Of a stretch of 61,921 nt of DNA, positions 31,269-48,713 are shown one piece after another. Position numbers and translations under genes: made by a program. Position 1 is the stretch's first letter. The number at the start of each line of letters is the position of its first letter. Below the pieces are notes generated by a model. The model did not search any database. It saw only the letters and a list, made by a program, of their open reading frames with translations, and had not been told where the DNA came from. The stretch is from the NCBI GenBank assembly GCA_045596125.1, contig JAZOBT010000089.1:1-61921 (forward strand), given 5' to 3'. The DNA comes from Acutalibacteraceae bacterium (lineage in GTDB: Bacteria > Bacillota > Clostridia > Oscillospirales > Acutalibacteraceae).

Positions 31269-31333
31269 ATTCCCCACTCCTCATTGCTGTACTTCCTCTG
31301 AATACCACGTGCCGCAACTAAAAAGCGGCCGTG

Positions 31334-31391
31334 CCACTATATATTACTACATATCGGTCTCCTTGTCAATGGCAAACACAATATATTGTGT
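31334..31391. promoter_or_regulatory. two NrdR boxes upstream of nrdD
   Basis: ACACAATATATTGTGT (31376-31391, perfect palindrome) and CCACTATATATTACTA (31334-31349). Confidence 0.7.
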
Positions 31392-31544
31392 ATGAAAATT
31401 TTTATAACTTCCCTTTTTCCGCATAAATCGCAGGTTTTTTAATAAAAAGAAAGATTCCGACACCACAATTTTTTGAACGACACGAGGTTTCCCGCTTAAT
31501 CGCGCGGACAAGCTCGTATTATATATGTATAAGGAGGTATGATT

Positions 31545-31889
31545 ATGGTAATACGGATGGGAACCGAGCCGGAGGGATTAACCGTCTGGCTTTCGGGCGA
31601 ACTCGACCATCACGCGGCACGCACCCTACGTGAACAAGTGGATGCCGCCGTGGAGCGTTCATCAGCAAAGCACCTGCGATTGGATTTTTCGGGTGTCACG
31701 TTTATGGACAGTTCGGGAATCGGTCTCATTATGGGACGCTATCGGTTAATGCAATCGCGCGGCGGTACGCTCACAGTGGCAGGCGCCTCGGAACGCTTGC
31801 TGCGCGTGATGAAACTCGCAGGGCTCGACCGCTTACCGGTGTGGGATGCTGCACCGAATACACAACACAAGGAGGTAACACGTAAATGA
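31545..31889 (+). CDS. spoIIAA: anti-sigma F factor antagonist (STAS)
   Basis: LTVWLSGELDHHAA...FMDSSGIGLIMGR phosphorylatable Ser context. Confidence 0.9.
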   Translation: MVIRMGTEPEGLTVWLSGELDHHAARTLREQVDAAVERSSAKHLRLDFSGVTFMDSSGIGLIMGRYRLMQSRGGTLTVAGASERLLRVMKLAGLDRLPVWDAAPNTQHKEVTRK

Positions 31890-32338
31890 AACAACCGATC
31901 AACGAAATGAAACTCACGTTTCCCAGTCGCTCGGCAAACGAGGCGTTCGCCCGCTCGGCGGTCGCCTCGTTCCTCACCCAACTCGATCCTGCCGTGGACG
32001 AGTTAGCCGACCTGCGCACCGCCGTATCCGAAGCAGTGACCAACTGTATCGTTCACGCTTACCGCGATACCATCGGCAACATCACGATCCAAATGCGTCT
32101 GTACGATGACGGCCGTACCGTCATTAAGATCCGTGACCGCGGTTGCGGTATTCCCGACGTGCCGCAAGCGATGGAACCGCTGTTCACAACAGGCGGTGAC
32201 GATCGCTCGGGATTGGGCTTCTCCGTGATGGAAAGCTTTACCGACCGCCTGCGCGTCACATCACGCGCCGGTCGCGGCACCACCGTCACAATGGAAAAAT
32301 ACATAACCGTGCGGGAACGGCAGGCGAAAGCAGTGTGA
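31886..32338 (+). CDS. spoIIAB: anti-sigma F factor (serine kinase)
   Basis: AVSEAVTNCIVHAY N-box and GLGFSVMESF G-box. ATGA overlap with the upstream gene. Confidence 0.92.
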   Translation: MKQPINEMKLTFPSRSANEAFARSAVASFLTQLDPAVDELADLRTAVSEAVTNCIVHAYRDTIGNITIQMRLYDDGRTVIKIRDRGCGIPDVPQAMEPLFTTGGDDRSGLGFSVMESFTDRLRVTSRAGRGTTVTMEKYITVRERQAKAV

Positions 32339-32991
32339 CACGCGACGAATACATCTGTGCCAATTTAGGACTCGTCCACAACTGCGCGCGCCGCTTTGTG
32401 GGGCGTGGCATCGAGTACGATGATCTGTATCAAGCCGGCTGTATGGGGCTCGTCAAAGCAGTGGACGGCTTTGATGAAAGCCGCGGACTGCGCCTATCCA
32501 CTTACGCCGTACCCGTCATACTCGGCGAAATACGCCGCTTATTTCGCGATGGCGGTACCGTCAAAGTCAGTCGCTCGCTCAAAGAACTGTCGATGCGTGT
32601 ATGCAAAGAGCGCGATGCCTTTCAAGCGCGCGAAGGCCGTGAGCCCACCGTCAGCGAATTAGCGGACGTATTGTCGCTGGAGCGCGAACAGGTGGTGGAA
32701 GCACTCGGTGCAGCGCTCCCCGCCTTGTCGCTCACGCGAAGCGGCGACAATGATGACGGCGATGAGATCGACGTTCCCGTGGCGGCACCCGAAGAATCTA
32801 TCACCGATCGCTTGGCGCTGGGGCAAGTGTTGTCGGAACTCTCCGAACACGACCGCTCGCTCATTGAACTGCGCTATTTCCAGCGCCGCACGCAACAGCA
32901 CACCGCCGAAGTTTTGGGAATGACACAAGTGCAAGTCTCGCGCCGCGAACGTGTCATCCTCCGCGAACTGCGCCGCCGCCTTTCCTCATAA
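32335..32991 (+). CDS. sigF: sporulation sigma factor F
   Basis: DDLYQAGCMGLVKAVDGFD region 2, and region 4 TQQHTAEVLGMTQVQVSRRE. GTGA overlap with spoIIAB. Confidence 0.92.
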   Translation: MTRDEYICANLGLVHNCARRFVGRGIEYDDLYQAGCMGLVKAVDGFDESRGLRLSTYAVPVILGEIRRLFRDGGTVKVSRSLKELSMRVCKERDAFQAREGREPTVSELADVLSLEREQVVEALGAALPALSLTRSGDNDDGDEIDVPVAAPEESITDRLALGQVLSELSEHDRSLIELRYFQRRTQQHTAEVLGMTQVQVSRRERVILRELRRRLSS

Positions 32992-33035
32992 AACAAGAAA
33001 CAGAGACGGATAATCGTTGTGCTCTTAAGGACAGT

Positions 33036-33070
33036 AAAAGGCTGTGTAGAAAATTTCTACACAGCCTTTT
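33036..33070. terminator. terminator after sigF, marking the start of the AT-rich islet
   Basis: AAAAGGCTGTGTAGAAA / TTTCTACACAGCCTTTT. Confidence 0.65.
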
Positions 33071-33089
33071 GCCTATCAAACAAATGTTT

Positions 33090-33458
33090 TTATTCTCTAA
33101 CAACTTCTGCACGCCGAAACGAAATTTCCAAATGCTTTGTTTTACATTTAACAGTATCGAATTTCAAATTCAGCAGATAATGGTCTCCCTTATTTACCAT
33201 TTCATCTGATAACCACCAACCACCATTTAGCAAACTTATGTCAAACTCGCTTGTTTTGATTTTATAATTATAGAAACGAATTTCTGTTATACCTGCCTCA
33301 AACAAAGCGCCATCACAATCAATCTTTAGTATTAAGCGATTATCTTCCGGATTCCAATTTGATTCCTTTTTTGTAGCTGAAATAATGTGGGCATCGTGAA
33401 GCCCGTGCATCCAATACCATTCCGGAAAATTATTTTGAGCTTGCTTCAACAAAATCAC
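33090..33458 (-). CDS. hypothetical protein (AT-rich islet)
   Basis: 122-aa ORF with AT-rich codon usage. No motif I can name with confidence. Confidence 0.5.
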   Translation of the reverse strand: MILLKQAQNNFPEWYWMHGLHDAHIISATKKESNWNPEDNRLILKIDCDGALFEAGITEIRFYNYKIKTSEFDISLLNGGWWLSDEMVNKGDHYLLNLKFDTVKCKTKHLEISFRRAEVVRE

Positions 33459-33848
33459 CCCACTGATTCTATTATATGCTTGTGTTAAATTAGGGACGAA
33501 TATAGCCTCCCTTGCCTAAAGGGAGGCTCGTATAAGAACAAGCCTTTTTCTGTATTTAATATAACATTTTTCGCTGATATTTTCAAATTATGTATACAAA
33601 TAGAGTTATCCCGAAATAACGAGATAACTCTATTTTTGATGGTATGACAAAAATCATATCAAAAAACGCCGTTAAAAGCTTTGTTTTTAAGCAGTAAAAC
33701 CGCCGAAAGTATGACGGTTATTCCTGCCTTGCCTTTTACACTAAACAGTTATTGAGAGTTTATTCGCAAAATAAGATATAGACTTTATCGCAAGCATAAG
33801 TATAATTAAATTAGAAGCTTCTAAACAAAACGAAAAGGAGCCGTTTTA

Positions 33849-34600
33849 ATGAATAACATTTTTTCCAATAATCTAAAGAAATTAAGATTACAAAAAAATC
33901 TTACTCAAGAGCAAGTTGCAGAGGTTTTAGGTGTAAGTACTCAAACAATTTCTCGCTGGGAATGTAATACAACTTACCCCGATATAATGTTGCTACCAAA
34001 AATTGCACGACTTTATTGTGTGACAGTTGATGACTTATTTAAAGAAGACTCATCAGCATATGAAAATTATGCTCAAAGGCTTGCCAGTGTTTACGAACTT
34101 ACACATAAAGCCGAAGATTATTTAAATGCAGATATAGAATTTAATAGACTTAAGAAATTAGGTAATTATACACTTGAAGATTGTCGAATACACGGAGTAA
34201 TTCATTCATCAATGATGTGTTCTTGCAAATGGTTGGCAATTGAAAATTTCAACTATATCATCAATGAATTTGAAAAAGAAAACAATATTTCACCCGAAAA
34301 TAAAATTTATTGGAAAACCCGATATCAAATAATACATTATTATATTGAAATAGGGCAATCAGAGCAAATATGTCAAAACCAAGAAAACCGATTAAAAAAT
34401 TGTGCAGATGATTATATGGAATGGACTGTTTTGATTTATGCCTATTATTATGCCGGAAAATATAAAGAGGCTTATGAAAGTTTTATAAAAACGAATGAAA
34501 AGTTTTCTGATAAATGGGAGATTTATGATATTGCAAGTTATGTTTGCAGAGCACTGAAAAAATTTGATGATGCAATAAAATATAGTGATATGTCTTATAA
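33849..34600 (+). pseudogene. XRE-HTH/TPR regulator, 5' portion, interrupted at 34600 by the integrative element
   Basis: AAAGGAG RBS. HTH is LRLQKNLTQEQVAEVLGVSTQTISRWE, followed by TPR-like repeats. The tracked tail NPSVAIPYRF... is read-through into element DNA. Confidence 0.8.
34594..34600 (+). repeat. attL core CTTATAA
   Basis: Lies at the junction of AT-rich host ORF sequence and the tRNA-like element end. Its counterpart CTTAAAA is at 43224-43230. Confidence 0.65.
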
Positions 34601-34648
34601 TCCCTCGGTAGCAATACCGTACCGGTTCGACCCCGGTCAGCGGCACCA
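34601..34648 (+). pseudogene. tRNA-Leu-like 3' fragment (anticodon-stem 3' strand to CCA), element-borne and not a functional tRNA
   Basis: TCCCT / CGGTA-GCAA-TACCG-T long variable arm / ACCGG-TTCGACC-CCGGT T-arm / CAGCGGC-A-CCA. No matching 5' half upstream. Confidence 0.75.
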
Positions 34649-34730
34649 AGCAAAAAACCGCTCAACCAAGCCTTTTGTTGGCATTGGTGGGCGGTTCTTT
34701 GTATGTGTAGGACGGTTAAGTTTTAGTTGG

Positions 34731-34752
34731 TTTGGGGTTTATTTGGGGTTTA
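34731..34752 (+). repeat. putative arm-type integrase sites (TTTGGGGTTTA x2-3), left arm
   Basis: TTTGGGGTTTATTTGGGGTTTA. The same 20-mer recurs at 43085-43115. Confidence 0.5.
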
Positions 34753-34781
34753 CTCAATAAAAAACGTACACTTTTCCCCCG

Positions 34782-35114
34782 TCACCGGCGCGGATCGTGC
34801 TGTGTGCCGCGGCGTTTCTTTCCCGACTTGGCCTGCTGTTCGGCTTCGATGAGCGGGACAGCTCTGCCGTAGGACAGCAGCTTGCCTGTGCGTTTCTCAT
34901 AGCGTTGGATCCAACGGACCACCTCGGAGATCGTCATCGCGCTGTCGGGATGTGGCGCCGGCACAGGTGGAGCGGGAGCCGGAGGTTTCTTCTTGCTCCG
35001 TGTCTTCCCTCTGTTCCGCGCACGATGAGCACACTCGGCCGAACAGAACCAAGCGAACGGTTTGTCCTCCGGAGCGGTGAAGATCTCACCGCATAATCTG
35101 CAACTTCGTTGTAT
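34782..35114 (-). CDS. small zinc-ribbon protein; no canonical start covers the ribbon
   Basis: The frame is open from the stop at 35123-35121. It encodes CRLCGE...FCSAECAHRA, a basic/Pro linker, then MTISEVVRWIQRYEKRTG. AAAGGAAG lies 9 nt before an ATA codon at 35114. Confidence 0.4.
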   Translation of the reverse strand: MQRSCRLCGEIFTAPEDKPFAWFCSAECAHRARNRGKTRSKKKPPAPAPPVPAPHPDSAMTISEVVRWIQRYEKRTGKLLSYGRAVPLIEAEQQAKSGKKRRGTQHDPRR

Positions 35115-35603
35115 GGTGATCTACTTCCTTTCGTGTCTTCTCTTAGTGAAGGGGTGGGCTGAGCAAAACTTAAAAGGGTCCCCCATTGCAAACGGGCAAG
35201 AGGGACAAGGGGCACCCCTCCCGCACCCCGGGGGGGGGAGGGTAAAGAGATACCCTTCACAATATTTTTTCTTACAAAAAAGGCGGCCTTTGTGCAGTTG
35301 ACTGCAAAGCGGCGCAACCCTAAAACCAACAGCGCGGAAAATCACCGTTCACGCCTTGCCGCGGCTTGGCTCGTTGGTGTTTGGTGTTTACGCCACCAGT
35401 GGCGCACTTTTGTTTTCCGATCAGCTGAGCGGGCAACGTGCGCTGCGTTTCCGCAGCGTTGCAAACAGGATCACGTTTGCGGCTTTCTTTTTATGGTGTC
35501 GGATTTGTCGGGGTGCAACCAACAAAAATAGTGCTAGTTGCACCTCGGTTTCAGCCGAAAACCCAGTAACACCAAGGGTCTAGGCCCTCTCCCGCCCTTT
35601 TTT

Positions 35604-35788
35604 TGAAACCAAGAAACTAATTTTCCTATACGCGAATTATCAAATATATATTTTTTCTCTAATATTTTTTAAAATTTTTTATATTGTTTTTTCCTTGGTT
35701 TCATAGTTTCAGAAGAAGTTAAAAGCGGAAAATCCCAGTTATACCAAGGGTTGACGGGGTGAAACCAGAGTGAAACCAACTGAAACCA
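35604..35788. other. putative replication origin: TGAAACCA iterons flanking an AT-rich stretch
   Basis: Direct TGAAACCA at 35604, 35760, 35771 and 35781 (the last three 10-11 bp apart). Inverted TGGTTTCA at 35696. Nearly pure A/T at about 35630-35690. Confidence 0.5.
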
Positions 35789-35818
35789 GCGCCCCAAAAA
35801 TAGGGCGCTGGCCTTTTC
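35788..35818. terminator. hairpin downstream of the VirE-like gene
   Basis: CAGCGCCC-CAAAAATA-GGGCGCTG followed by GCCTTTTCTT. Confidence 0.45.
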
Positions 35819-35828
35819 TTAGTTTCAC

Positions 35829-37241
35829 TTATTTTCGCTTCCAGTACTTTTGGTAGCCATACCCGGTAAACCGTTTCCCTTTGTTCTGCCTTGCCCACCC
35901 CGGCATATTTTGCATAATGAGCACAATGTCATTGCTATCCTTCCGAGTGGGATGTGCGTACTCATTCATCAACGCTTCCTTCCACAGCTCCAGTATACAG
36001 ATCTCGTTGCGGCCGTCCAGGTAGTCCTCGATCAACCCGACACGGTAATCTTCCTCTGCCGCGTTACGTTGTGCGCTCTCGATCTGCGACAGTAGTGCGT
36101 AGTTCGGAACGGCGGGAAGCTCGTCCCGATCGAACAGAGCCTTTGCCTCAGCCCAGCACTGCCGAATATAAGCGCGGATCTCCTGCTCTCGGTTGTGCAG
36201 CTCGTAGCCGTTGCTGTGTACCGTCACCGGCAGGAAACGGCGGTTGCCCGTCTTGTCGGTCAAAAACTGCTCGCGGTTGGTCGTTCCGATGAATATGTTT
36301 TGCCGGAGATAGTCGGCGGGTCTTTTGTCATAAGAGCGCCGGACGTAATCGCTTTGCCGGGATAGGAACGCCTTGACCGCCTCGACCTCTTTCGCTTTGG
36401 TGAGCGCCAACAGCTCGCTGAGTTCGCAGATCCATTTGCCGGTGATCGTCTCCATGCCGTCCTTGCCCTCGATCGTGAACGTGTCGGAATAGAAGCGATC
36501 CTCCAGTGCAAGCATCCGCACGACCGTGCTTTTGCCCTCGCCCTGCGCTTTGCCGATCAGCACCGGAACGCTGTCGAATTTACAGCCGGGGTTATAAATG
36601 CGATGGATTCCGCCGGCGAAAATAAGGCGGCTCACCTCGCGCGTGTACAGATCGTCCTCGCATTTGAGCACGTCGCATAAAAACCGCTCGATCCTGTGGG
36701 TACCGTCCCACGTGATTGCTTCGATCATATCCTTGATGGGGTGGTACGAGCGTGTGTGTGCCACGTTGGCGAGCGCCATCATACACATTTGTGGGCTGTA
36801 GATCTTGTATTCCCGTTCAATGTAGCTGATAGCAAGGCCATCGTCGGCATCCGTCCACAGCCGCACCCTACTGCCTTCAATGATCTCCATCGTGTTTGCC
36901 ATCAAGTTATACTGCAACCCCGCAAAATACGGGTCGTTCTGTATGATCCGCTCGAAGTTGTTGACCGTGCGGCGGATCTTCCCCTGCCGATCGTACTCGA
37001 TCGGGAAATCGATCTTGCGTTGCGGTAACTGCTCAAACATTTTATTTTCCTCAGTGCGGTACGCGCCGATCAGCGAGCGGGCCGCCTTGCTGCAGCCGAG
37101 AAAATCCGCACGGTCTTGCAAAGCAATCAGCCGTCTTGTCTTTGTGATTTCATCCGTGGTGTCAAAAATTGCGTCGAAGGTATCCTCACTGAGCAGTTGT
37201 GCTGCTGTCATTTCCCCGATCTGTTTTTCTGTGATTGTCAA
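35829..37241 (-). CDS. VirE-family (virulence-associated protein E) P-loop replication protein
   Basis: Walker A GKAQGEGKST, Walker B-like ICELSEL, and TTNREQFLTDKTGNRRFLPV, typical of phage/satellite VirE/D5-like NTPases. Confidence 0.85.
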   Translation of the reverse strand: MTITEKQIGEMTAAQLLSEDTFDAIFDTTDEITKTRRLIALQDRADFLGCSKAARSLIGAYRTEENKMFEQLPQRKIDFPIEYDRQGKIRRTVNNFERIIQNDPYFAGLQYNLMANTMEIIEGSRVRLWTDADDGLAISYIEREYKIYSPQMCMMALANVAHTRSYHPIKDMIEAITWDGTHRIERFLCDVLKCEDDLYTREVSRLIFAGGIHRIYNPGCKFDSVPVLIGKAQGEGKSTVVRMLALEDRFYSDTFTIEGKDGMETITGKWICELSELLALTKAKEVEAVKAFLSRQSDYVRRSYDKRPADYLRQNIFIGTTNREQFLTDKTGNRRFLPVTVHSNGYELHNREQEIRAYIRQCWAEAKALFDRDELPAVPNYALLSQIESAQRNAAEEDYRVGLIEDYLDGRNEICILELWKEALMNEYAHPTRKDSNDIVLIMQNMPGWARQNKGKRFTGYGYQKYWKRK

Positions 37242-37977
37242 TGATATTTCTCCTCTCCTGTTCTAATTCCTCCAAGCGGTATTGCGCCCGCTCAATATGC
37301 GTAATAGCGTCGATAAATTCCGGACACGGCGGCTCATCGGAACGCGTGGGCCGCTTGTTTTGGATGATCGTCTCGTAATGTCGCACCAAATCGAACATTT
37401 CCCAATAGTGAGCGGTCGCTTGCTCCTCTGCCCGTTTCCGCTCCCGCCGTTCCTTTTGCCGGCGCTCCTGCTCGGTGCGTGCACGTCTCCGAGCGGTCAA
37501 CGTTTGGTTGCCAAATAACCCGAGTGCAAAATCCGTGTCAATTCGACGCAGCGCATCGGCAAACCCGAGCCGAAACCACCGCCGCACAAACGTGATCACG
37601 TCGCCGCTCTCACTGCACCCGAAGCAATAATATGTGCCGTTCGGGTAGATCGTAAAAGACGCGTCCTTCTCTCCGTGAAACGGACAACACATTTTGTCGC
37701 GCTTGATCGTCTCGCCGGTATACCGTTCGATCAATTCCACGAGCGGGACCCGCTCCTTGATCTGCTCCTTGATATAGTCGTAGCTGTATATGGTCTTCCC
37801 CTCCCTTCCGATACCACAGAGGGCGCACCGCCGTCTCCGACAGCACGCCCCCCACGGCTTGACTTTTTCGCCGTTCTCGGCTATACTTGACGGTAGAGGT
37901 TTATCCTCTACTGTTCGGCACCCCTGCGAGCGTTTTCGGCGCTTATCGCGGGGGTGTTTCCTTTTGCTCGTCAACAT
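37186..37977 (-). CDS. CHC2 (DnaG-type) zinc-finger protein without a TOPRIM domain
   Basis: CCPFHGEKDASFTIYPNGTYYCFGCSESGDVITFV. The true start is uncertain: ATG 37977 has no SD, and GGGAGGGG precedes an ATA at 37791. Confidence 0.7.
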   Translation of the reverse strand: MLTSKRKHPRDKRRKRSQGCRTVEDKPLPSSIAENGEKVKPWGACCRRRRCALCGIGREGKTIYSYDYIKEQIKERVPLVELIERYTGETIKRDKMCCPFHGEKDASFTIYPNGTYYCFGCSESGDVITFVRRWFRLGFADALRRIDTDFALGLFGNQTLTARRRARTEQERRQKERRERKRAEEQATAHYWEMFDLVRHYETIIQNKRPTRSDEPPCPEFIDAITHIERAQYRLEELEQERRNIIDNHRKTDRGNDSSTTAQ

Positions 37978-38089
37978 TCAAAACCCGAAACAGCTTGTCC
38001 CATACGCGATCGGGGATCCACCGTTCAGCGGCCGCCGCGAGCACGAGGAACACAAGCAGCCAACATAAGGCAATCAGCAGTGCGGCCAT
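37943..38089 (-). CDS. 48-aa single-pass membrane protein
   Basis: AGGGAGG 7 nt before the ATG. MAALLIALCWLLVFLVLAAAAERW... Confidence 0.5.
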   Translation of the reverse strand: MAALLIALCWLLVFLVLAAAAERWIPDRVWDKLFRVLNVDEQKETPPR

Positions 38090-38307
38090 CCGATAACCTC
38101 CCTTTTCATCGGCGGAGCTGTCACGCAGTTGTCGGACAAGAACTGTTCCAAGACGTCCATATTGATCAGCGTTTTCTTGCCGATCTGAATACGCGGGAGC
38201 TTCCCTTGCTTCACCAGTTGGCGGATCGCCCATTCCGTGATCGGCGTTGCAGGATCCTCCGCCTTAAGCTCGCGCACCGCTTCGGGGATCGTTCGTACTC
38301 GAATCAT
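38074..38307 (-). CDS. xis: excisionase-type (HTH_17/MerR-like) DNA-binding protein
   Basis: ITEWAIRQLVKQGKLPRIQIGKKTLINMDVLEQFL. Confidence 0.65.
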   Translation of the reverse strand: MIRVRTIPEAVRELKAEDPATPITEWAIRQLVKQGKLPRIQIGKKTLINMDVLEQFLSDNCVTAPPMKREVIGWPHC

Positions 38308-38323
38308 TGTTCGCTCTCCTTTC

Positions 38324-38614
38324 TCATATCAGCTGACGTATCAGCACAGCAGGGACACCGATCACACGAAGAAGATCCCGATCGTACCCGTACAACTCGA
38401 TTGCCGGCTCCTTCGGATCCATCGGCACAAACCGCTCGCGATCGTCCTCTATGTACAGATTCCCGAGGATCTTTCGCCCGGCGTACTCAGCAAGTACCCG
38501 CTCGCCGTTGCCGCGCACGTTGCCGGCATTGATAAACAAAAGCAGATCACCGGCGCGGTAATCTTCGTTATCGCCCTGCACCGTCGAGGTGATCGGGCCG
38601 TCCCATTCAAGCAT
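38324..38614 (-). CDS. hypothetical protein (element cargo)
   Basis: 96-aa ORF, tightly packed within the operon. No recognisable motif. Confidence 0.5.
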   Translation of the reverse strand: MLEWDGPITSTVQGDNEDYRAGDLLLFINAGNVRGNGERVLAEYAGRKILGNLYIEDDRERFVPMDPKEPAIELYGYDRDLLRVIGVPAVLIRQLI

Positions 38615-38616
38615 CG

Positions 38617-38829
38617 TTATTCCTCCACACTGTCATTCCCGAAATATGCCCTTTCCCGTTGGATGCAATACTGCACCGCTGCCGGATGCTTGACAAAGCA
38701 CAGCACAACGATATCGGGATCTTGAAGCATCACCACCGCATATACAGGAAGTGCGCTTTCAAAGATCGAAGGACGGACCCCGTAATGCTTTGTGATCTGC
38801 TCCGCCTTATCTAAAAAGTGATAGTTCAT
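38617..38829 (-). CDS. hypothetical protein (element cargo)
   Basis: 70-aa ORF starting at MNYHFLDKAEQ. The stop is 3 nt before the next gene. Confidence 0.45.
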   Translation of the reverse strand: MNYHFLDKAEQITKHYGVRPSIFESALPVYAVVMLQDPDIVVLCFVKHPAAVQYCIQRERAYFGNDSVEE

Positions 38830-38843
38830 TTTGTCACCCTTCC

Positions 38844-39026
38844 TCAGTACAGAAAGACCTCGTCCACGGTACGACCGAGAGCGGCCGCTACCTTCAGCAT
38901 CGTGTGCGTAGTGGTTACACAGTTCTCGCTCTCCAGCTCGGCAATGTGGGCGGCTGTCACTCCTGCCCTGTCTGCCAATTCTTCCCGTGACCATCCTTTT
39001 TCTGTTCGCAATTCCTTCATCCTCAT
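38844..39026 (-). CDS. XRE-family HTH protein
   Basis: MKELRTEKGWSREELADRAGVTAAHIAELE. Confidence 0.7.
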   Translation of the reverse strand: MRMKELRTEKGWSREELADRAGVTAAHIAELESENCVTTTHTMLKVAAALGRTVDEVFLY

Positions 39027-39039
39027 TCCGTTTTCCTCC

Positions 39040-39231
39040 CTACCCAAAAATCTCCTGCACGGTTTTTCCAAAGAGCCGTGCAAACCGCTCTTTTACCTCG
39101 TCGCGCGGCACACGTTCTCCCTGCTCGTACGCAGTTAACGCTGCTACGCTGATACCCAGCGCGGCCGCCAACAGCTCTCGATGGACGGATCCGCGCATCT
39201 CCTTCAGCCGTTGCCCGATATTTGTCTGCAT
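39040..39231 (-). CDS. XRE-family HTH protein
   Basis: IGQRLKEMRGSVHRELLAAALGISVAALTAYEQGERVP. Confidence 0.75.
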   Translation of the reverse strand: MQTNIGQRLKEMRGSVHRELLAAALGISVAALTAYEQGERVPRDEVKERFARLFGKTVQEIFG

Positions 39232-39243
39232 TTTCTTCTCCCT

Positions 39244-39885
39244 TCAGCACGTGACCGCGCACGTGCGCTGTATGTACCCGGCAAACTGCCGCACGATCTG
39301 CAGTTCTGTTAGGGTGAGCGGTTGTCCGCTCCGCTTACGTTGTCGGATCCGCTCAGCCACCGGCTCGGCGTCCTCCGGCAATGTCTTACACAGCAGTGCA
39401 ATTTCCTCCGGTGTTTCAGCGCCGCAAAGCATCAGCACACATTCCGGCATCAGCAGTTCGCCGGCAAACGCATCCGCCTCCTGCTCCATTCGGCTGTAGG
39501 AAATCGTCCTGCCCGTTACAACGTGGGCCGCGCCATCCTCCGACACCCACTGCCACGACCCCGCGTGGCCGCGCATTATGTGCCCCAATTCGTGCGCCAC
39601 AGTGAACCGTTGGTACTCGATACAATTACGGTTATCTACAAACGAGTACGGTTTCCCTTTCAAGATCGTGCAATACCCCGCGCCGTTCCTTGAGGGATTT
39701 CGCTTACTCGTGAAAATGTGAGGTTTTCCGTTTCGTATTCCATAGCAGCCGTTGCTATCGTCGGTCGGATAGTAGACCTTACTGGAGATCCCCATACTCT
39801 CACATATCGGATACGTCTTAATCGGCAGCTCCGTGTCTCCGTGCTCCAGTAATACCCGCTGCGCCGTCTCCTTCGCTACGTTCAT
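39244..39885 (-). CDS. ImmA/IrrE-family zinc metallopeptidase
   Basis: FTVAHELGHIM (HExxH) with a downstream EADAFAGELLMP motif. Confidence 0.8.
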   Translation of the reverse strand: MNVAKETAQRVLLEHGDTELPIKTYPICESMGISSKVYYPTDDSNGCYGIRNGKPHIFTSKRNPSRNGAGYCTILKGKPYSFVDNRNCIEYQRFTVAHELGHIMRGHAGSWQWVSEDGAAHVVTGRTISYSRMEQEADAFAGELLMPECVLMLCGAETPEEIALLCKTLPEDAEPVAERIRQRKRSGQPLTLTELQIVRQFAGYIQRTCAVTC

Positions 39886-40139
39886 TGGTTGCCCCGCTCC
39901 TTTTCAGCGCTTTTCTCGTCGTGGTACGTATCAAACGCTTTGCGGAGATCTGTTTGAATATGCATCAGCTCGTCGATCGGCGACATAAGAATCGCACCGA
40001 GATCTTCGTCGATATCCAAAATGTGATCGCACAAAACGCTGAATGTTTTTGCAAGATATTCAAGATCGTTTATTCGGCTGTCGAGTTTTATCCACGGGAC
40101 AGTGTTTTCTGTCGTTGGCGCCTTTTTCTCTCTGCTCAT
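39882..40139 (-). CDS. hypothetical protein (element)
   Basis: 85-aa acidic ORF. Its stop overlaps the ImmA start. Confidence 0.5.
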   Translation of the reverse strand: MSREKKAPTTENTVPWIKLDSRINDLEYLAKTFSVLCDHILDIDEDLGAILMSPIDELMHIQTDLRKAFDTYHDEKSAEKERGNQ

Positions 40140-40166
40140 TGTTTGGTTTTTCTCCTCTCTGTTCGG

Positions 40167-40183
40167 TTACGCTTAAAGCGTAA
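40167..40183. promoter_or_regulatory. operator palindrome copy O1
   Basis: TTACGCT-TAA-AGCGTAA. Confidence 0.5.
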
Positions 40184-40185
40184 TT

Positions 40186-40377
40186 TTAGGGCAAAAAATT
40201 GATTTGATCATAGTTCACCCTGTATGTACGCTCGATCTCCGGAATTTTGGAAACTGCCGGGAACGACTTCCCACTCTCCCAATTCACAAGCGTTTCGCGC
40301 GACACACCGATGCTCTTTGCTGCTTCAGCTTGCGTCATACCCACGTTGATGCGTGCCGCTTTCAGTGTCACCTTCAT
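40186..40377 (-). CDS. Cro-like XRE-family HTH protein
   Basis: 63 aa. ARINVGMTQAEAAKSIGVSRETLVNWESGK. Divergent from the repressor gene. Confidence 0.75.
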   Translation of the reverse strand: MKVTLKAARINVGMTQAEAAKSIGVSRETLVNWESGKSFPAVSKIPEIERTYRVNYDQINFLP

Positions 40378-40398
40378 TTCTCCACCTCCTTTTCCAAT

Positions 40399-40508
40399 TT
40401 ACGCTAAAAGCGTAATTTCAGTATAGCATAATTACATTTCTTTTGTCAACGCTAAAAGTGTAATTTTTTCGATTTCGTGTTGACTTTTTTACATTTTAGG
40501 CGTATAAT
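40399..40508. promoter_or_regulatory. genetic-switch region: operators O2/O3 overlapping divergent promoters
   Basis: O2 is TTACGCT-AAA-AGCGTAA (40399-40415). O3 is AACGCT-AAA-AGTGTAA (40447-40463). Minus-strand promoter: TTGACA (40449-40444), 18 nt, TATACT (40425-40420). Plus-strand promoter: TTGACT (40480), 17 nt, TATAAT (40503). Confidence 0.6.
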
Positions 40509-40534
40509 CTAATCACAAGAGGAGGCGATCAACC

Positions 40535-41185
40535 GTGAGCGACTTAGGAAACAAAGACGTTTTTGCCTATAATTTAAAACGCTATATGGAGAAAAAAGGC
40601 GTAGACCGGAACCAGTTATGTTCCGCCCTCGGCCTTAAATATTCCACCGTGTCGGAGTGGATCACCGCAAAAAAATATCCCCGCATTGATAGAATAGAAC
40701 TGCTAGCTAGATACTTTGCTATTCAAAAATCCGACTTGATAGAAAGAGAGCGCACGGGCACCGCCGCTCCCGCTCTGCCGAGCAACATCCTCCCCCTCCC
40801 CAAAACGCGGAAGATTCCCCTGCTCGGTACCATCGCTTGCGGTGAGCCGATCACGGCCGTGGAGAACGTGGAGCAATATATTGACGTAGCCGACGATATC
40901 CATTGCACGTTTGCGCTGCGGTGCAAAGGCGACAGTATGATCGACGCGCGGATCATGGACGGCGACGTGGTATATATCCGCGAACAACCACAGGTGGAAA
41001 ACGGCGAGATCGCCGCGGTTCTCATCGAGGATGAAGCGACATTGAAACGTGTATATTTATCCGAGGGAGTTGTGCAGCTCGTCCCCTGTAATGCCAAATA
41101 CTCCCCGATGGTATATACCGACGCACAGCTCGACACCATCCGCATTCTCGGCAAAGCCGTGGCGTTTACCAGTCTTGTGCGATGA
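40535..41185 (+). CDS. CI/LexA-like repressor (XRE HTH + S24 peptidase)
   Basis: GTG 9 nt after AGGAGG. HTH is NQLCSALGLKYSTVSEWI. S24 Ser (KGDSM) and Lys (TLKRV). Putative cleavage site reads IACGEP. Confidence 0.85.
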   Translation: MSDLGNKDVFAYNLKRYMEKKGVDRNQLCSALGLKYSTVSEWITAKKYPRIDRIELLARYFAIQKSDLIERERTGTAAPALPSNILPLPKTRKIPLLGTIACGEPITAVENVEQYIDVADDIHCTFALRCKGDSMIDARIMDGDVVYIREQPQVENGEIAAVLIEDEATLKRVYLSEGVVQLVPCNAKYSPMVYTDAQLDTIRILGKAVAFTSLVR

Positions 41186-41354
41186 AACAACCCACTCAAA
41201 GCAAATAAAAAAGGCCCCGCTCCTGCGCCAACAGGAACGGGACCACACCGCCGGAGGTATCACCCTATGACAGTACACCCTAGAAGGCACTGTTATTGTA
41301 ACATACCTCCGGCTGAAATTACAACCTAATTTTAGCCAGGGAGGTATTTTTATT

Positions 41355-42734
41355 ATGGCAACTATCGAAAAACGTGGAAACACTTACAGGATCGTGGTGT
41401 CGGCAGGGTACGCGATGGACGGCAAACAGATCCGCCGCCGAATGACGTGGACGCCCGAGCCGGGAATGACGGAGCGGCAGATCACCAAAGAGGTACAGCG
41501 ACAGGCCGTGCTGTTTGAGGAAAAGGTTATGAGCGGGCAAGTGCTTGACGGTTCGATCCGCTTTGCCGAGTTCGCCGAATATTGGATGAATGAGTACGCC
41601 GAGAAGCAGTTGCGGCCCTCCACCATACACGGCTATCAGCGGATGATCGACAGGATCCTGCCGGCGTTGGGAAATATCCGTCTTGACCGACTACAGCCCC
41701 GCCACCTAATGGAATTTTACAACGAGCTTGCCGCCGAAGGACGGCTCAACGGTCTCACCTACACAGCGAAAAGAGATCTGTCGGCGTTGGCAAAGGAGCG
41801 CGGATTGCGGCACAAGGACATTACACAGACGAGCGGTTTGCCAAAGGGAACGGTCGCCCAAGCATTTCGCGGTGTTGCTCCGATCTCCAAGAGATCCGCA
41901 CAAGGGATCGCGGCGGCGCTGGATCTACCGCTCGGAGATCTGTTTGCGGTCGTAGAGCGTGACCGCTCCCTATCCGGCAACACCGTGCTGCACTATCATC
42001 GGCTGCTTTCCTCGATGCTGGAGAAAGCCGTCAAATGGCAAGTCTTATTCTCCAATCCATGCCGACGTGTGGAAGCCCCCAAACTTGAACACAAAGAAGC
42101 TGTATACCTCGACGATGAACAAACAAGGCAACTTTTGCTCTGTTTGCAGAACGAGCCGTTACAGTACCGCTCGATCGTGACGCTACTGCTGTATACCGGA
42201 ATGCGACGCGGAGAGCTGTGCGGCCTTGAATGGTCGGACATTGATTTCGAAAACTGCCTTGTGGACATCTCCCGATCGTCACTGTATATCACCGGACGCG
42301 GCGTGTTCGATGATGAAACTAAGACGCAATCCTCACGCCGTGTGATCAAAGTGCCGCCGGAGGCGTTGGAGCTGTTGCGGGAACATCGGAAGGAGCAAGC
42401 CGAGACGCGGATCCTGCTCGGTGATCGGTGGACGAACAGTGGCAAGATCTTCACGCAGTGGGACGGTAAACCGATTCATCCCGACACATTGACGCGATGG
42501 TTTTCGGATTTCATCAAGCACAATGATCTGCCGCCGATCCATCTGCACAGTCTGCGCCACACCAACGCCACGTTGTTGATCGCCGCCGGTGCCGATCTGC
42601 GTACCGTGTCAAAACGCCTCGGCCACAGCAACCTAACCACGACCGGAAATATCTACACCCACGCGATACAGTCCGCCGATGAGCGAGCCGCCGCACTGTT
42701 GGGCGACATCCTCCACCCGGTGAAAAGAGCATAA
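41355..42734 (+). CDS. int: tyrosine site-specific integrase
   Basis: N-terminal arm-binding-type domain (MATIEKRGNTYRIVV), SAM-like core-binding domain, and catalytic R...HSLRHT...LGHSNLTTTGNIYTH. Confidence 0.92.
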   Translation: MATIEKRGNTYRIVVSAGYAMDGKQIRRRMTWTPEPGMTERQITKEVQRQAVLFEEKVMSGQVLDGSIRFAEFAEYWMNEYAEKQLRPSTIHGYQRMIDRILPALGNIRLDRLQPRHLMEFYNELAAEGRLNGLTYTAKRDLSALAKERGLRHKDITQTSGLPKGTVAQAFRGVAPISKRSAQGIAAALDLPLGDLFAVVERDRSLSGNTVLHYHRLLSSMLEKAVKWQVLFSNPCRRVEAPKLEHKEAVYLDDEQTRQLLLCLQNEPLQYRSIVTLLLYTGMRRGELCGLEWSDIDFENCLVDISRSSLYITGRGVFDDETKTQSSRRVIKVPPEALELLREHRKEQAETRILLGDRWTNSGKIFTQWDGKPIHPDTLTRWFSDFIKHNDLPPIHLHSLRHTNATLLIAAGADLRTVSKRLGHSNLTTTGNIYTHAIQSADERAAALLGDILHPVKRA

Positions 42735-42738
42735 AAAA

Positions 42739-42770
42739 GCCCGCTCGATCGTGAGCGGGTTTTGCTTTTG
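42739..42770 (+). terminator. int terminator
   Basis: GCCCGCTC-GATCGT-GAGCGGGT followed by TTTGCTTTTG. Confidence 0.65.
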
Positions 42771-43084
42771 TGCCGGCGAAAATAGACCACTTGTTCCGCA
42801 CTATTGTTTCACGGGAAATGAGAAACGCCAAAAAGCCCGTAAAGCCGCACCACACCGTACTTTGTGAGCAATGACAACGAGAATATGTGAGGGAGAAGAA
42901 ACAAAGCATAGGCAACGCTTTAAAAATAGCGCCGCAAATCTACGTACAATGCCCGTACTTTGCTTAGAATTGCCCAAATTTCGCGTTTTCTTGTTTCAGC
43001 CATCAAAGGAGATTACCAAACTAAGCAAGCGCCTAAAAGGCAAACAGGCGAGCAACGCCAAGCAAAGACAACCATCACAATCTT

Positions 43085-43115
43085 TTTGGGGTTTATTTGG
43101 GGTTTGTTGGGGTTC
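43085..43115 (+). repeat. putative arm-type integrase sites, right arm
   Basis: TTTGGGGTTTATTTGGGGTTTGTTGGGGTTC (three units). Confidence 0.5.
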
Positions 43116-43223
43116 ATAAACCCCAAGATTTCATCCTGCGTTCCAAGGAACGAACATCAAAAAACCGCATAAAATCAAGCCTTTCCACGTTTCACAAAAA
43201 GATAACAAACGCGGAAAATAGAA

Positions 43224-43230
43224 CTTAAAA
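43224..43230 (+). repeat. attR core CTTAAAA (reads as a tRNA-Leu UAA anticodon loop)
   Basis: These are the last 7 bp before the host ORF resumes at 43231. In the circular form it abuts the tRNA 3' fragment at 34601. Confidence 0.65.
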
Positions 43231-43417
43231 ACTTAATTCTGAATATCTTGATGCAGTATATTCAAAAGCTTTTTGCTTTGAAGAAATGGGAGATTATAAA
43301 AAAGCATATGATACTTGGCTTTTCATCATTGATTCATTAAAGAAAGATGGTTACCATATAGAAGTAAAAAGAGAAGAAGAACGAGCACAAGCGTGTTTAG
43401 AAAAAATCAAACGGTAA
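43231..43417 (+). pseudogene. XRE-HTH/TPR regulator, 3' portion
   Basis: In frame with 34599-34600 (AA + A = Lys): KLNSEYLDAVYSKAFCFEEMGDYKKAYDTWLFIIDSLKKDGYHIEVKREEERAQACLEKIKR*. Same AT-rich composition as the 5' part. Confidence 0.75.
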
Positions 43418-43420
43418 CGA

Positions 43421-43455
43421 TGAAAGCAGGGATTAATTCCCTGCTTTCATTTTGT
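43421..43455 (+). terminator. terminator of the TPR regulator gene
   Basis: GAAAGCAGGGA-TTAA-TTCCCTGCTTTC followed by ATTTTG. Confidence 0.65.
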
Positions 43456-43504
43456 CCCTATTGTATCTCAACCATAGCATAATCGCTAGCGCTTTTCCAG
43501 TTGT

Positions 43505-43545
43505 ATTCCGATTATCGTCGGAGTGATATAACTTACCTGAGACAA
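43505..43545. repeat. second copy of the 21.1-kb repeat unit
   Basis: TATTCCG-N8-CGGAGTGATA-N4-TTACCT here, against TATTCCG-N7-CGGAGTGATA-N3-TTACCT at 21126-21158. Confidence 0.45.
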
Positions 43546-43547
43546 AT

Positions 43548-43587
43548 AAAACTGGCGTAGTGTCCTTTACAACACTACGCCAGTTTT
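43548..43587 (-). terminator. terminator of the cysE-cysS-HMA operon
   Basis: AAAACTGGCGTAGTGT / ACACTACGCCAGTTTT 16-bp stem. Minus strand has TTTTATTT after it. Confidence 0.65.
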
Positions 43588-43804
43588 ATATTACAGAAAA
43601 TCCCGCGTTGGCAAGTGCCGTCGTCATTTCCGACACGGTCGTCTTATCGGGATAAAACGACACATTTGCCGCATCGCGCCGCACCGATGCCGATCGCACA
43701 CCCGGTATGTCACGTAATACCTGTGCCGCCGCCTTGCGCGTCGCGGCATCGTGCACACCGTCCAATTTCATTGTAATGGATTCGGCTTTCGAAAACATAG
43801 GCAC
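43586..43804 (-). CDS. HMA-fold (heavy-metal-associated-like) small protein lacking the CxxC motif
   Basis: ITMKLDGVHDAATRKAAAQVLRDIPGVRSASV...TALANAGFSV follows the ferredoxin-like HMA pattern. GVHD replaces the metal-binding CxxC. Confidence 0.5.
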   Translation of the reverse strand: MPMFSKAESITMKLDGVHDAATRKAAAQVLRDIPGVRSASVRRDAANVSFYPDKTTVSEMTTALANAGFSVI

Positions 43805-43848
43805 TCCCCCTTTTCACAGGGTAGTATACCTCGTTTTTACACGGTTAT

Positions 43849-45246
43849 TCAAACACGATGCCACTTGGCGCCTTGCGGCGTGTCTTCCACCACAATGCCG
43901 CGTGCTTTCAGTTCATCACGAATGCGATCCGACTCTGCCCAATTCTTCTCCGCACGCGCCTTGGCACGTGCTTCAATGAGCGCCTCGATCTCCGCATCGT
44001 CCTCGCTCGCGGCTCCGCGGCTGTACAATAAGCCCAGCACACCCGCCAACTCGTTAAACGCTTTGAGCGCCGTCTCGCAGCTACCCGCCGTCGGCTGATC
44101 GTTAGCAATCATCAGGTTGCAATCTTTCGCCAATTCAAACAACGCCGAGATGGCATCCGCGGTGTTCATATCGTCATCCATCGCGTCAATGAACTGCTGG
44201 CGGCGTCTCTCGCAGAAAGCCTCGACGGCCGCATCTGCCTCGCCCACGGGCGCGTTTTTCAACGCAAAGTCCAAGCCGTTGCGGCAATTGTACAAGCGAT
44301 CCAACGCCGCCGTCGCCTGCTCAATGCTCTCATCGTTGTAGTTGATGGGGCTGCGGTAAGACGAGGAGATCAAGAAGAACCGAATCGGCTCGTACCCGAA
44401 TTTCTCTGCCACGTCACGCACTGTGAAGAAATTGCCGAGCGATTTCGACATTTTTTTATTATCGACATTGATGTAACCGTTATGCATCCAATACCGCGCA
44501 AACGGTGCATCGTTGCAGCATTCGCTCTGTGCCACTTCGTTTTCGTGGTGCGGGAAGATTAGATCTTGACCACCGCAGTGAATATCAATGGAACGGCCCA
44601 AATAACGGCGCGCCATCGCGGAACATTCAATGTGCCAGCCGGGGCGTCCTTCGCTCCACGGTGACGGCCAAAACGGCTCGCCGGGTTTCGCTGCTTTCCA
44701 CAACGCGAAATCCAACGCATCTTCCTTTTCTTCACCCACACCGATGCGCGCACCCGACTCCAGATCATCAATGGGTTGATGCGACAGCTTACCGTACCCC
44801 TCATCGCGACGCGTACGGAAATACACGTCACCGTTATCGGCACGGTATGCATATCCTTTTTCCTCTAATGTACGAATGATGTCGATGATCTCGTTCATAT
44901 TTTCGGTAGCACGCGGATGCACCGTCGCCTCACGCACACCAAGCCCCTTGGCGTCCACCGTAAACTCGGCAATGTAGCGCTCCGAGATCGTCTTGTAATC
45001 CACGCCTTCCTCATTAGCACGGCGAATGATCTTGTCGTCAATGTCAGTAAAGTTCTGAACAAAACGAACCTCCCAACCGCGCCACTCCAAATAACGGCGC
45101 AGCACATCAAACACGCACAACGGACGCGCGTTACCGATGTGGATGTAGTTGTACACCGTCGGTCCACACGCGTAAATGCGCACCACGCCGGGTTCTAATG
45201 TGACGAGTTCTTCTTTTTCACGCGCCATCGTATTGTAAATTCTCAT
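43849..45246 (-). CDS. cysS: cysteine--tRNA ligase
   Basis: [18 protein letters not shown] (HIGH) and KMSKSLGN (KMSKS). Confidence 0.96.
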
Positions 45247-45878
45247 TTGTCATTCTCCTTTTTCAAAGATTCCAATAGGCTCAGGCGCTCTTTCAGCGCC
45301 TCGATCTCTTGCATCAGCGGATCGGGTACGTGCACCTGATCCAATTGCTCCACGACTTTCTCGCCGCCGACACGCACCACGCGCGCGGGGACACCCACCG
45401 CCGTAGCGTTTTCGGGAATATCATTCAGCACTACCGCACCGGCGGCAATGCGCGCATGATCGTGCACCTCAATAGGACCCAATACTTTCGCACCGGCACC
45501 CACCATCACGTGATTGCCGAGCGTGGGATGTCGCTTACCGGTATCCTTACCCGTACCGCCCAGCGTCACACCTTGGTACAACGTACAATCGTCCCCGATG
45601 ATCGCCGTCTCACCGATTACCACGCCCGTACCGTGGTCAATGAACAACCGGCGCCCGATCGTTGCAGCAGGGTGTATTTCGATATTCGTGCGCCGCACAC
45701 AATGCTGTGAGATGGCACGTGCCAAAAACTTCATTCCGTGCCGATAACACCAGTTCGCCTTGCGGTACGAGCGCACTGCTTTAAAGCCATTGTACAGCAA
45801 CACGATCTCCATTGTCGAGCGTGCTGCCGGATCTTTATCGCGGATCACCGCGATATCTTCGCGAAATCGCTCAAACAT
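45243..45878 (-). CDS. cysE: serine O-acetyltransferase
   Basis: IHPAATIGRRLFIDHGTGVVIGETA hexapeptide core. AAGGAGAG RBS. ATGA overlap with cysS. Confidence 0.92.
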   Translation of the reverse strand: MFERFREDIAVIRDKDPAARSTMEIVLLYNGFKAVRSYRKANWCYRHGMKFLARAISQHCVRRTNIEIHPAATIGRRLFIDHGTGVVIGETAIIGDDCTLYQGVTLGGTGKDTGKRHPTLGNHVMVGAGAKVLGPIEVHDHARIAAGAVVLNDIPENATAVGVPARVVRVGGEKVVEQLDQVHVPDPLMQEIEALKERLSLLESLKKENDK

Positions 45879-45896
45879 ACCCTCTCTCCTTATCAA

Positions 45897-46128
45897 AAAA
45901 AGCACCCTTGCCGCGCCAAAGGCGCGGCGAAGGTGCTCTCACACGGTTCCACTTCGCGTTTCACTCGAAGCCCGATAACGGTGGCAGCCGTGCAGGGATA
46001 CCAAGCCGATGGCTCTTCCCCCTGCCTGCTCACGGGTGCATTTCACCGCCGTCTCACCGAAAGCGCTTTCAGCCGATGACGCTTCCTCTCTGCTGTGAGT
46101 AACCGCGGGTACTTCTCCCGATCACTGC
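45897..46128 (-). ncRNA. T-box leader (Cys specifier) upstream of cysE-cysS
   Basis: Minus strand shows an AGAGAGG box, GAAAUGCA (UGC followed by A) in stem I, the T-box core GAAGUGGAACCGUGUGAG, and a terminator GAGCACCTTCGCCGCGCC-TTTG-GCGCGGCAAGGGTGCT followed by TTTTTTT. Confidence 0.8.
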
Positions 46129-46181
46129 ATTTATCAACCCTATTATAGCAGATTTTTTTAAAAAATCTACCCTTTTTTCAA

Positions 46182-48091: not shown

Positions 48092-48713
48092 CCGATAGAT
48101 CCTCTTCCCGTAACACACGGCGGATCACCGCCGCACTGTACCCATGCCGCGCCATCGCCGCGGCAATCTTTTGTACTTCTTTTGTGTCCCGAGATACAGT
48201 ATACCGTTTTTTCGCCAGAAAAGCAAGTGCCATTTCGGTCTCGTCGGTCTCCACCGCACCCGCCGCCTCGCGTGCCGTTTCGCGGTCGATGCCTTTGCGC
48301 AACAACTCGTCCTCAATGCGCCGCCGCGGATAGAGTTTTTCGCGCGCATACCGCTGCGCCAATCGGTGCGCATACTCTGCGTCGCGAACATACCCTAACT
48401 CTTCCATACGCGCCGCCGCCCACACCGCCTGCTCGTGCCGTTCGGGATGGTAACGCCCCTTCTCGCGGCACAACTTCTGCTCCAGCTCCCGCCGCGACAA
48501 ATCGCGCTTGGATAACAAAAACACCGCCTTGCTCTCCATTCGCCGCCGCTCGGATGCCGCGCACAAGTCCTCCAACTCCGCATCAGACAAAGAGGAACCC
48601 ACCCCGTAGGGGGATTCCTCCCATACCGTCGTATCAATGAGAACCGCCGTACCGTCCTCCATCGTGATGCGCCGCTGATGCCCTTTCACAGGGTACACCG
48701 CCGCGATCCTCAT
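48084..48713 (-). CDS. recX: recombination regulator RecX
   Basis: Helical-repeat protein immediately downstream of recA and overlapping it. [15 protein letters not shown]. Confidence 0.85.

Follow-up and report, generated by a model that had tools for sequence, protein, structure and literature searches.

An XRE-HTH/TPR regulator gene of an Acutalibacteraceae bacterium probably hit off target by an integrative element of tRNA-Leu(UAA) type

Why should a regulator gene in a spore-forming bacterium be cut exactly in frame by a mobile element? The question is raised by contig JAZOBT010000089.1 of an Acutalibacteraceae bacterium (assembly GCA_045596125.1), whose 61,921 nucleotides we analysed as a whole and refer to as the window. 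In it, a GC-rich integrative element of 8,630 bp, located at 34601–43230, splits a gene encoding a regulator with an XRE-type helix-turn-helix (HTH) and tetratricopeptide repeats (TPR). A first-pass annotation of this stretch had likened the arrangement to skin in sigK and to phage phi10403S in comK, and had proposed that excision might reconstitute the regulator conditionally, in connection with sporulation. We consider it very probable that a tRNA-Leu(UAA)-type integrative element inserted off target, in a single lineage, into a non-essential, horizontally acquired regulator gene, and we are equally confident that the insertion happened recently, is confined to this strain or lineage and is not a built-in genetic switch.

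That a gene has been split is evident from its reading frame. The open reading frame (ORF) beginning at 33849 has a GC content of ~28%, compared with ~53% for the genome; at 34601 it meets DNA of 50–60% GC, and AT-rich DNA returns at 43231. When 33849–34600 and 43231–43417 are spliced, they form 939 nt, or 312 codons and a stop, and the frame reads ...DMSYKLNSEYLD...KIKR* (also rendered ...KYSDMSYKLNSEYLDAVYSK...KIKR*). The ORF as it now stands reads into the element and stops at 34760, encoding 303 aa: the regulator is truncated after codon 250, within the TPR array, and 53 unrelated codons are fused on. Both halves of the gene are undecayed, and the terminator that had been proposed behind the 3′ half does fold into a hairpin (Table 1). 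In the spliced protein, the XRE-type HTH occupies residues 9–63 (Pfam HTH_3, E=9e-14) and residues ~123–306 align with TPR arrays when a profile of homologues is searched. With its XRE HTH at the N terminus and a TPR-type domain behind it, the protein has the architecture of RNPP/Rgg-type regulators, as the first-pass annotation had it. The 60 best PDB matches of the regulator profile include no RNPP protein (such as PlcR, NprR, PrgX, Rgg, ComR or AimR); they are XRE HTH domains and TPRs of generic or designed kind.

The uninterrupted allele is on record. The spliced protein has 468 homologues, the best of which (P0001, 312 aa) is uninterrupted and is encoded on an ENA contig (L001) in the same sigF–cysS locus. 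The order nrdD, spoIIAA, spoIIAB, sigF, regulator, cysS, on to recA, is common to L001 and the window, and L001 is 97.9% identical to window 23849–34600 and 97.7% identical to window 43224–50881. The spliced gene and the intact gene of L001 agree at 937 of 939 nt and 311 of 312 aa, the two changes being one synonymous substitution and one W128R. Among the best 120 of the 468 homologues are 112 full-length proteins, every one of which aligns gap-free over the junction, with a mean identity of 57% on either side of it. The intact regulator gene is common: the 90% cluster of P0001 holds 64 sequences, one of which is listed in 89 contig-index blocks. The element therefore does break up a gene found whole in other genomes, and it arrived there not long ago. 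The in-frame join requires no special explanation, because any conservative site-specific insertion in an intact ORF has this appearance.

Some homologues were considered as further interrupted copies and rejected. P0051 (249 aa, 61% identity) ends almost at the position of the break in the window; its contig (L002, gene at 10001–10750) has only AT-rich DNA past the stop and no element, and we regard the protein as a natural truncated variant. P0253 (511 aa), P0010 and P0048 have N-terminal extensions or truncations, and their junction region is intact. Elsewhere in the shared 27 kb, the sole stretch that does not align is window 50881–52012 versus L001 18420–19059, which falls inside a 654-aa ORF (50220–52184, minus strand) with an N-terminal hydrophobic segment; the counterpart in L001 has 463 aa.

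Where did the recombination occur? The CTTATAA of L001 (10746–10752) aligns to both junctions of the window. The unoccupied site (attB) in L001 reads ...GATATGT CTTATAA ACTTAATTCTG..., the left junction (attL) reads ...GATATGT CTTATAA TCCCTCGGTAGC... and the right junction (attR) reads ...GGAAAATAGAA CTTAAAA ACTTAATTCTG.... Only this heptamer is common to the two ends of the element, at six of its seven positions (T versus A). The element sequence directly to the right of the attL heptamer, TCCCTCGGTAGCAATACCGTACCGGTTCGACCCCGGTCAGCGGCACCA, covers the 3′ strand of the anticodon stem, a long variable arm, the T arm, the 3′ strand of the acceptor stem and CCA. Over the 55 nt at 34594–34648, it is 88–91% identical to the tRNA-Leu(UAA) genes of two loci from Acutalibacteraceae metagenome-assembled genomes (L007 and L012), so that the tRNA-like DNA noticed earlier from 34601 onwards proves to be the 3′ half of tRNA-Leu(UAA); when this half is grafted onto the 5′ half of the L007 gene, the acceptor stem pairs. 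It was identified by alignment rather than by a tRNA model. No complete tRNA was called in the window by ARAGORN or Rfam. At gathering thresholds Rfam had no match anywhere in the window, and at E<=1 it had none in 34400–34900; both are silent because the 5′ half is missing and the remainder is too short for a tRNA model. In many tRNA-targeting integrases, including the relatives analysed here, the crossover lies in the anticodon loop. Outside the heptamer, a base-by-base reading of the attB flanks against a real tRNA site finds matches at ~4 of 20 positions. Identical 21-mers, TTTGGGGTTTATTTGGGGTTT, are present at 34731–34751 and 43085–43105, ~130 nt inside each end of the element, and represent the arm-type sites to be expected for a lambda-type integrase.

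Where do relatives of the element sit? We collected 174 loci with integrase relatives from species genomes, metagenomes and viral contigs, 66 of which contain a tRNA gene. In L007 and L012, where the integrase is 60–63% identical to that of the window, the element sits in tRNA-Leu(UAA): at 7.4–7.8 kb upstream of int, a complete tRNA-Leu(UAA) gene lies on the same strand, and a few hundred bp downstream of int its last part recurs as a repeat of 56 nt, ACTTAAAATCCCTCGG...CACCA. Their orientation and the placement of their arm repeats match the window, in which the element is flanked by the halves of a protein-coding gene, without a tRNA gene, and the repeat is just 7 bp. In seven relatives (L007, L012, L014, L183 and L185–L187), the arm motif is found in paired form at either end, and in every tRNA-sited relative described, the tRNA repeat starts at the anticodon loop. 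From the tRNA half of the element itself and from these relatives at 60–63% identity, we infer that its primary site is tRNA-Leu(UAA). A homologue of the regulator, as judged by its TPR part, flanks none of the 174 loci (tblastn of the spliced regulator; generic HTH-domain matches only). In 5.8 billion clusters, integrase identity did not exceed 82%, the relatives in a metagenome scan reached at most 58% identity, and neither the integrase nor the 303-aa truncated ORF of the window has an exact match in the protein and contig indexes. A search of viral_contigs for an excised or packaged form found neither the predicted attP junction, AATAGAACTTAAAATCCCTCGG, nor the tRNA half of the element.

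What kind of element is it? Its genes were assigned by Pfam and PHROG matches, and for the repressor also by TIGR00498 (Table 1). The integrase combines a catalytic domain with an N-terminal SAM-like core-binding domain, and its translation shows the R...HxxR...H...Y motifs of the family (TGMRRGE, HSLRHT, LGHS and NIYTH). The repressor scores 108.6 bits against TIGR00498 lexA, just below the cut-off of 110.95. Three copies of the palindrome TTACGCTWAAAGCGTAA, at 40167–40189, 40399–40421 and 40447–40469, are located between the genes for the S24 repressor and the Cro-like protein and look like operators of a lysogeny-type switch. The leftward operon encodes, in order, the Cro-like regulator, an 85-aa unknown, the M78 protease-like protein, the XRE HTH, a 96-aa unknown, HTH_17, CHC2 and VapE; the last of these, the primase-helicase, also matches phrog_256 and phrog_1313 (‘DNA helicase’, E ~1e-105). 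The integrase gene is intact, as are those of the repressor and the Xis-like protein. The element thus has an integrase of its own, as had been claimed, and the claim of a xis-like gene is borne out only by a weak HTH_17 match below the family cut-off. No capsid, terminase, relaxase or secretion gene was recognised in the element, and neither 34650–35830 nor the rest of it gave a Pfam or PHROG match to packaging or capsid-redirecting genes. The otherwise unannotated left 1.2 kb holds a short coding signal at 34836–35120 (minus strand), without a family match, which is conserved with a related locus (L005; tblastx, 50–53% identity, two segments in one frame). By its gene content, the element appears to be a small satellite-like or mobilisable island, and the S24 and ImmA modules make SOS or helper-phage derepression its likely trigger. 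None of its genes gives a pointer to sporulation control, sporulation promoters not having been searched for.

Table 1. Features of the split regulator gene and of the integrative element (window coordinates).
Feature	Position	Strand	Evidence or remark
5′ part of XRE-HTH/TPR regulator gene	33849..34600	+	codons 1–250 plus 2 nt
attL crossover heptamer CTTATAA, attB-type version	34594..34600	+	alignment to L001
Element-borne 3′ half of tRNA-Leu(UAA), P′ side of attL	34601..34648	+	type-II tRNA
P′-arm arm-type integrase-binding repeats	34720..34751	+	TTTGGGGTTTATTTGGGGTTT and degenerate neighbour
VapE/D5-type primase-helicase gene	35829..37241	-	PF05272 E=6e-65
CHC2 zinc-finger primase-like gene	37186..37977	-	PF01807 E=1.4e-17; PHROG DNA primase families
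Small HTH_17 (excisionase/AlpA-like), weak candidate Xis	38074..38307	-	PF12728 23.4 bits, cut-off 27
XRE-type HTH regulator in element	38844..39083	-	HTH_3 E=8e-11
ImmA/IrrE-type M78 metalloprotease-like gene	39244..39885	-	PF06114 E=2.6e-10; phrog_87 metallo-protease
Divergent control region, three operator-like palindromes TTACGCTWAAAGCGTAA	40167..40469		
Cro-like small HTH regulator, first gene of leftward operon	40186..40377	-	PHROG transcription regulators, E ~1e-9
CI/LexA-type repressor, HTH and S24 self-cleaving peptidase domain	40535..41185	+	PF00717 E=2.8e-27
Tyrosine integrase, 459 aa	41355..42734	+	PF00589 E=9e-31, PF14659 E=5e-16
P-arm arm-type repeats	43085..43116	+	identical 21-mer and degenerate neighbour
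attR crossover heptamer CTTAAAA, attP-type version, tRNA-Leu(UAA) anticodon loop	43224..43230	+	
3′ part of regulator gene	43231..43417	+	last nt of codon 251 through stop
Intrinsic terminator hairpin of regulator gene	43421..43455	+	-23 kcal/mol, 14-bp stem then TTTT

How might the insertion have come about? The element encodes a heterobivalent tyrosine integrase, and its attP carries tRNA-Leu(UAA) from the anticodon loop to the CCA end. Since attP holds this part of the gene, the normal target would be a tRNA-Leu(UAA) gene, which would be rebuilt upon integration. In the present case, strand exchange would have taken place in a 7-bp block resembling the anticodon loop, between CTTAAAA of attP and CTTATAA of a pseudo-attB; the single mismatch would have produced a heteroduplex, and its replication would have left CTTATAA at attL and CTTAAAA at attR. 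The switch of the element itself looks phage-like and comprises the S24 CI/LexA-type repressor, the Cro-like HTH, the ImmA-like protease and the operator-like palindromes between the divergent operons. Upon induction, probably by SOS or by a helper phage, the Xis-like and primase/helicase genes would be expressed. Excision by Int and Xis would be conservative, so that the ORF could be rebuilt; it is expected to be inefficient, because the heptamers of attL and attR differ. The excised attB would be a T/A heteroduplex, resolving into TCT TAT AAA (Ser-Tyr-Lys, intact ORF) or into TCT TAA (a stop at codon 250). The predicted empty site after excision is ...GATATGTCTTA[T/A]AAACTTAATTC..., and the predicted circle junction is ...GGAAAATAGAACTTA[A/T]AATCCCTCGGTAGC.... 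The proposal that excision would rebuild the regulator thus holds for the TAT product and fails for the TAA product.

Three points weigh against an off-target insertion of a tRNA-Leu(UAA) element. First, the tRNA-Leu(UAA) gene of the host itself lies outside the window. Second, the exact element, as judged by an integrase more than 82% identical, was found in no tRNA gene. Third, close relatives change tRNA specificity readily, and the occupied site is represented by one copy.

Could the element nevertheless be a domesticated regulatory switch, of the intervening or active-lysogeny type, whose programmed excision, for example in sporulation, reconstitutes the regulator? The precision of the insertion, the undecayed state of both gene halves and the intact integrase, repressor and Xis-like genes would suit such a function, as would a spore-forming host with the sigF operon adjacent to the gene, and systems of this kind are known (PMC5595907, PMC4191935, PMC7397523). 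They include the sporulation cases skin/sigK, SPbeta/spsM, gin/gerE and yin/yabG, with vfbin as a further member of that class, and the phage switches phi10403S/comK and phiSa3int/hlb (PMC5595907, PMC4191935, PMC7397523); the sporulation intervening elements use serine recombinases, with either the recombinase or its recombination directionality factor (RDF) under sporulation control (PMC5595907). As in skin, SPbeta, gin, yin, phi10403S and phiSa3int, a coding gene is split here and can be rebuilt by conservative excision. Those elements, however, have a dedicated attachment site in the split gene and recur across strains, whereas the attachment site here is of tRNA type and its occupancy is unique: attP is made for a tRNA gene, tRNA genes are where the relatives sit, and no other record shows the site occupied, common though the intact gene is. 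In place of a serine recombinase with a sporulation-controlled RDF, there is a tyrosine integrase under a LexA/CI-type repressor, and the mismatch between the crossover heptamers leads one to expect poor excision, with TAA in 50% of the products (PMC3715440). The split gene encodes an XRE-HTH/TPR regulator of generic type and is not among the conserved sporulation genes; only its adjacency to sigF in this species hints at a link. We therefore regard a domesticated switch as very unlikely; the analogy with skin and phi10403S does not hold for a tRNA-targeting element with a tyrosine integrase and with no relative at the regulator, and the idea of a conditionally reconstituted, sporulation-linked regulator is not supported, given that the crossover heptamers differ and that homologues of the regulator occur in unrelated contexts.

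The adjacency to sigF deserves closer description. The spoIIAA-spoIIAB-sigF operon (31539–32991) does lie upstream of the regulator gene, as had been reported, across ~850 bp of AT-rich DNA; the connection with sporulation drawn from this position was not sustained. The adjacency is not conserved, because close homologues occupy unrelated contexts: P0006 (88% identical) lies between two NUDIX genes, P0017 (74% identical) adjoins an aldo-keto reductase gene, and P0241, a member of the 90%-identity cluster of P0001, is found near genes for a thioredoxin-reductase-like protein, APH and Fe-hydrogenase, or in surroundings that look mobile. In all, homologues at 74% to >90% identity are found in at least four unrelated contexts. 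A ~1.35-kb AT-rich cassette, comprising the promoter region, the gene and its terminator, shows 87% DNA identity between the window and L177–L180; it spans 33529–34600 and 43231–43482 in the window, and the loci compared were L177–L181 and L188–L195. The GC content of the regulator gene is 29–34% in L177–L180, with flanks of 37–51%, and the flanks in L001 have 52–54%. On this evidence, the regulator is itself a cassette that moves horizontally, and its place after sigF is peculiar to this species. Within the same low-GC island, the stretch from sigF to the regulator holds an AT-rich ORF of 122 aa (33090–33458, minus strand), which matches only the C-terminal part of DUF4085 (positions 121–196 of 205) and is probably a gene remnant. 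Perfect inverted repeats of 17 and 18 nt at 33036–33070, after sigF, and at 43546–43589, after the convergent cysS, are likely terminators bracketing this island. Farther away, a second low-GC island (GC 0.38 over 20001–21000) contains a 299-aa ORF (19971–20870, minus strand) that may be another horizontally acquired gene.

A second explanation would be that the integrase has evolved into a variant whose true primary site is now the regulator gene, the tRNA half being a leftover. The specificity of this family does seem labile: L182, whose integrase is 82% identical, uses a Thr-like tRNA half (loop TTTGTAA), L004 and L005 (73% identical) are in tRNA-Arg(ACG), L008, L183 and L185–L187 are in tRNA-Trp(CCA) and L014 is in tRNA-Met. 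The P arm is conserved despite these differences; at 42736–43214 it is 72% identical to that of L182, and the similarity ends ~10 bp before the crossover heptamer. The TTTGGGGTTTATTTGGGG arm repeats and the P arm persist in the relatives L182, L004/L005, L008, L014, L183 and L185–L187, and the tRNA 3′ halves of these differ, which suggests modular swapping of attachment specificity inside one integrase family. A leftover, however, would hardly agree with a 55-nt tRNA half that is structurally intact and still so close to tRNA-Leu(UAA) genes, nor would a new primary site agree with a target that matches attP at 6 of 7 bp in the heptamer and at nothing in the flanking core positions. No second occurrence was found, either in the 174 related loci or in the cluster search for the integrase. 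We consider a shift of specificity to be highly improbable.

There is a slim chance that the off-target insertion has become a nascent switch, having been kept since excision induced by SOS or by a helper conditionally restores the regulator or, via the TAA product, kills it permanently. If this were true, a tyrosine integrase and a tRNA-type attP would be the drivers of such a switch in a gut Oscillospiraceae-type spore former. An assembly artefact, in which a chimeric contig joins an unrelated element into an AT-rich gene, might be suggested by the abrupt change of composition at both junctions and by an integrase and a truncated ORF that are not on record elsewhere, and is scarcely credible when both junctions fall on the same 7-bp block, at the anticodon loop where the attachment-site identity of the relatives starts, when 7 bp is far short of the overlap length of any assembler, and when the two gene halves enclose the whole element, paired arm repeats included.

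With the off-target insertion of a tRNA-Leu(UAA)-type element as the favoured reading, the closest known situation appears, by analogy, to be the secondary-site insertion of a tRNA-Leu-specific element such as ICEBs1 of Bacillus subtilis. The primary site of ICEBs1 is trnS-leu2, and its secondary sites have a 7-bp crossover region in which mismatches lead to attL and attR ends whose crossover sequences differ; excision from secondary sites occurs at 4–15% of the level at attB or is undetectable (Menard & Grossman 2013, PMC3715440). The two elements share a tyrosine integrase, a tRNA-Leu primary site, a 7-bp crossover region, an off-target insertion in a protein-coding gene with a partial core match and an attL/attR mismatch, and a module composed of an ImmA-type protease and an HTH repressor. 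In contrast to ICEBs1, which is conjugative, has 20 kb and carries a relaxase and a type IV secretion system, the present element has 8.6 kb, a primase/VapE module and no recognised conjugation genes; and whereas the ICEBs1 insertions were obtained in a laboratory strain lacking attB, the insertion described here is a natural event. A further parallel is phage lambda. Secondary-site lysogens of lambda require homology in the 7-bp overlap, and their excision is impaired when the overlaps differ. A heterobivalent integrase, arm-type sites and rare integration at sites resembling the overlap are common to lambda and this element, unlike the primary attB, which in lambda is intergenic and not a tRNA gene; nor is the element a complete phage. 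In gene set (int, repressor, AlpA/Xis and primase-helicase) and in size (~8–15 kb), it resembles tRNA-targeting islands, satellites like the phage-inducible chromosomal islands (PICI) and P4-like elements. It also has, like the tRNA-targeting islands, an attP with a tRNA 3′ part that rebuilds the gene on integration, and a crossover in the anticodon loop. It differs from them in that the copy in the window lies outside a tRNA gene, and in that its status as a satellite is unproven, packaging genes not having been recognised.

What does this locus tell us about integrative elements of this family? An exact in-frame split of an ORF is not evidence for a programmed switch; the anatomy of the attachment sites and the sites occupied by relatives are what discriminate. 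The occupied window and the empty L001 form a natural before-and-after pair, which places the crossover used by these integrases in the anticodon loop of 7 nt, and the locus would be an example from the wild of the mismatched-overlap outcome shown experimentally for ICEBs1. For annotation, this means that the split regulator should be read as a disrupted gene, and the element, very probably, as an atypically sited island of tRNA-Leu(UAA) type.

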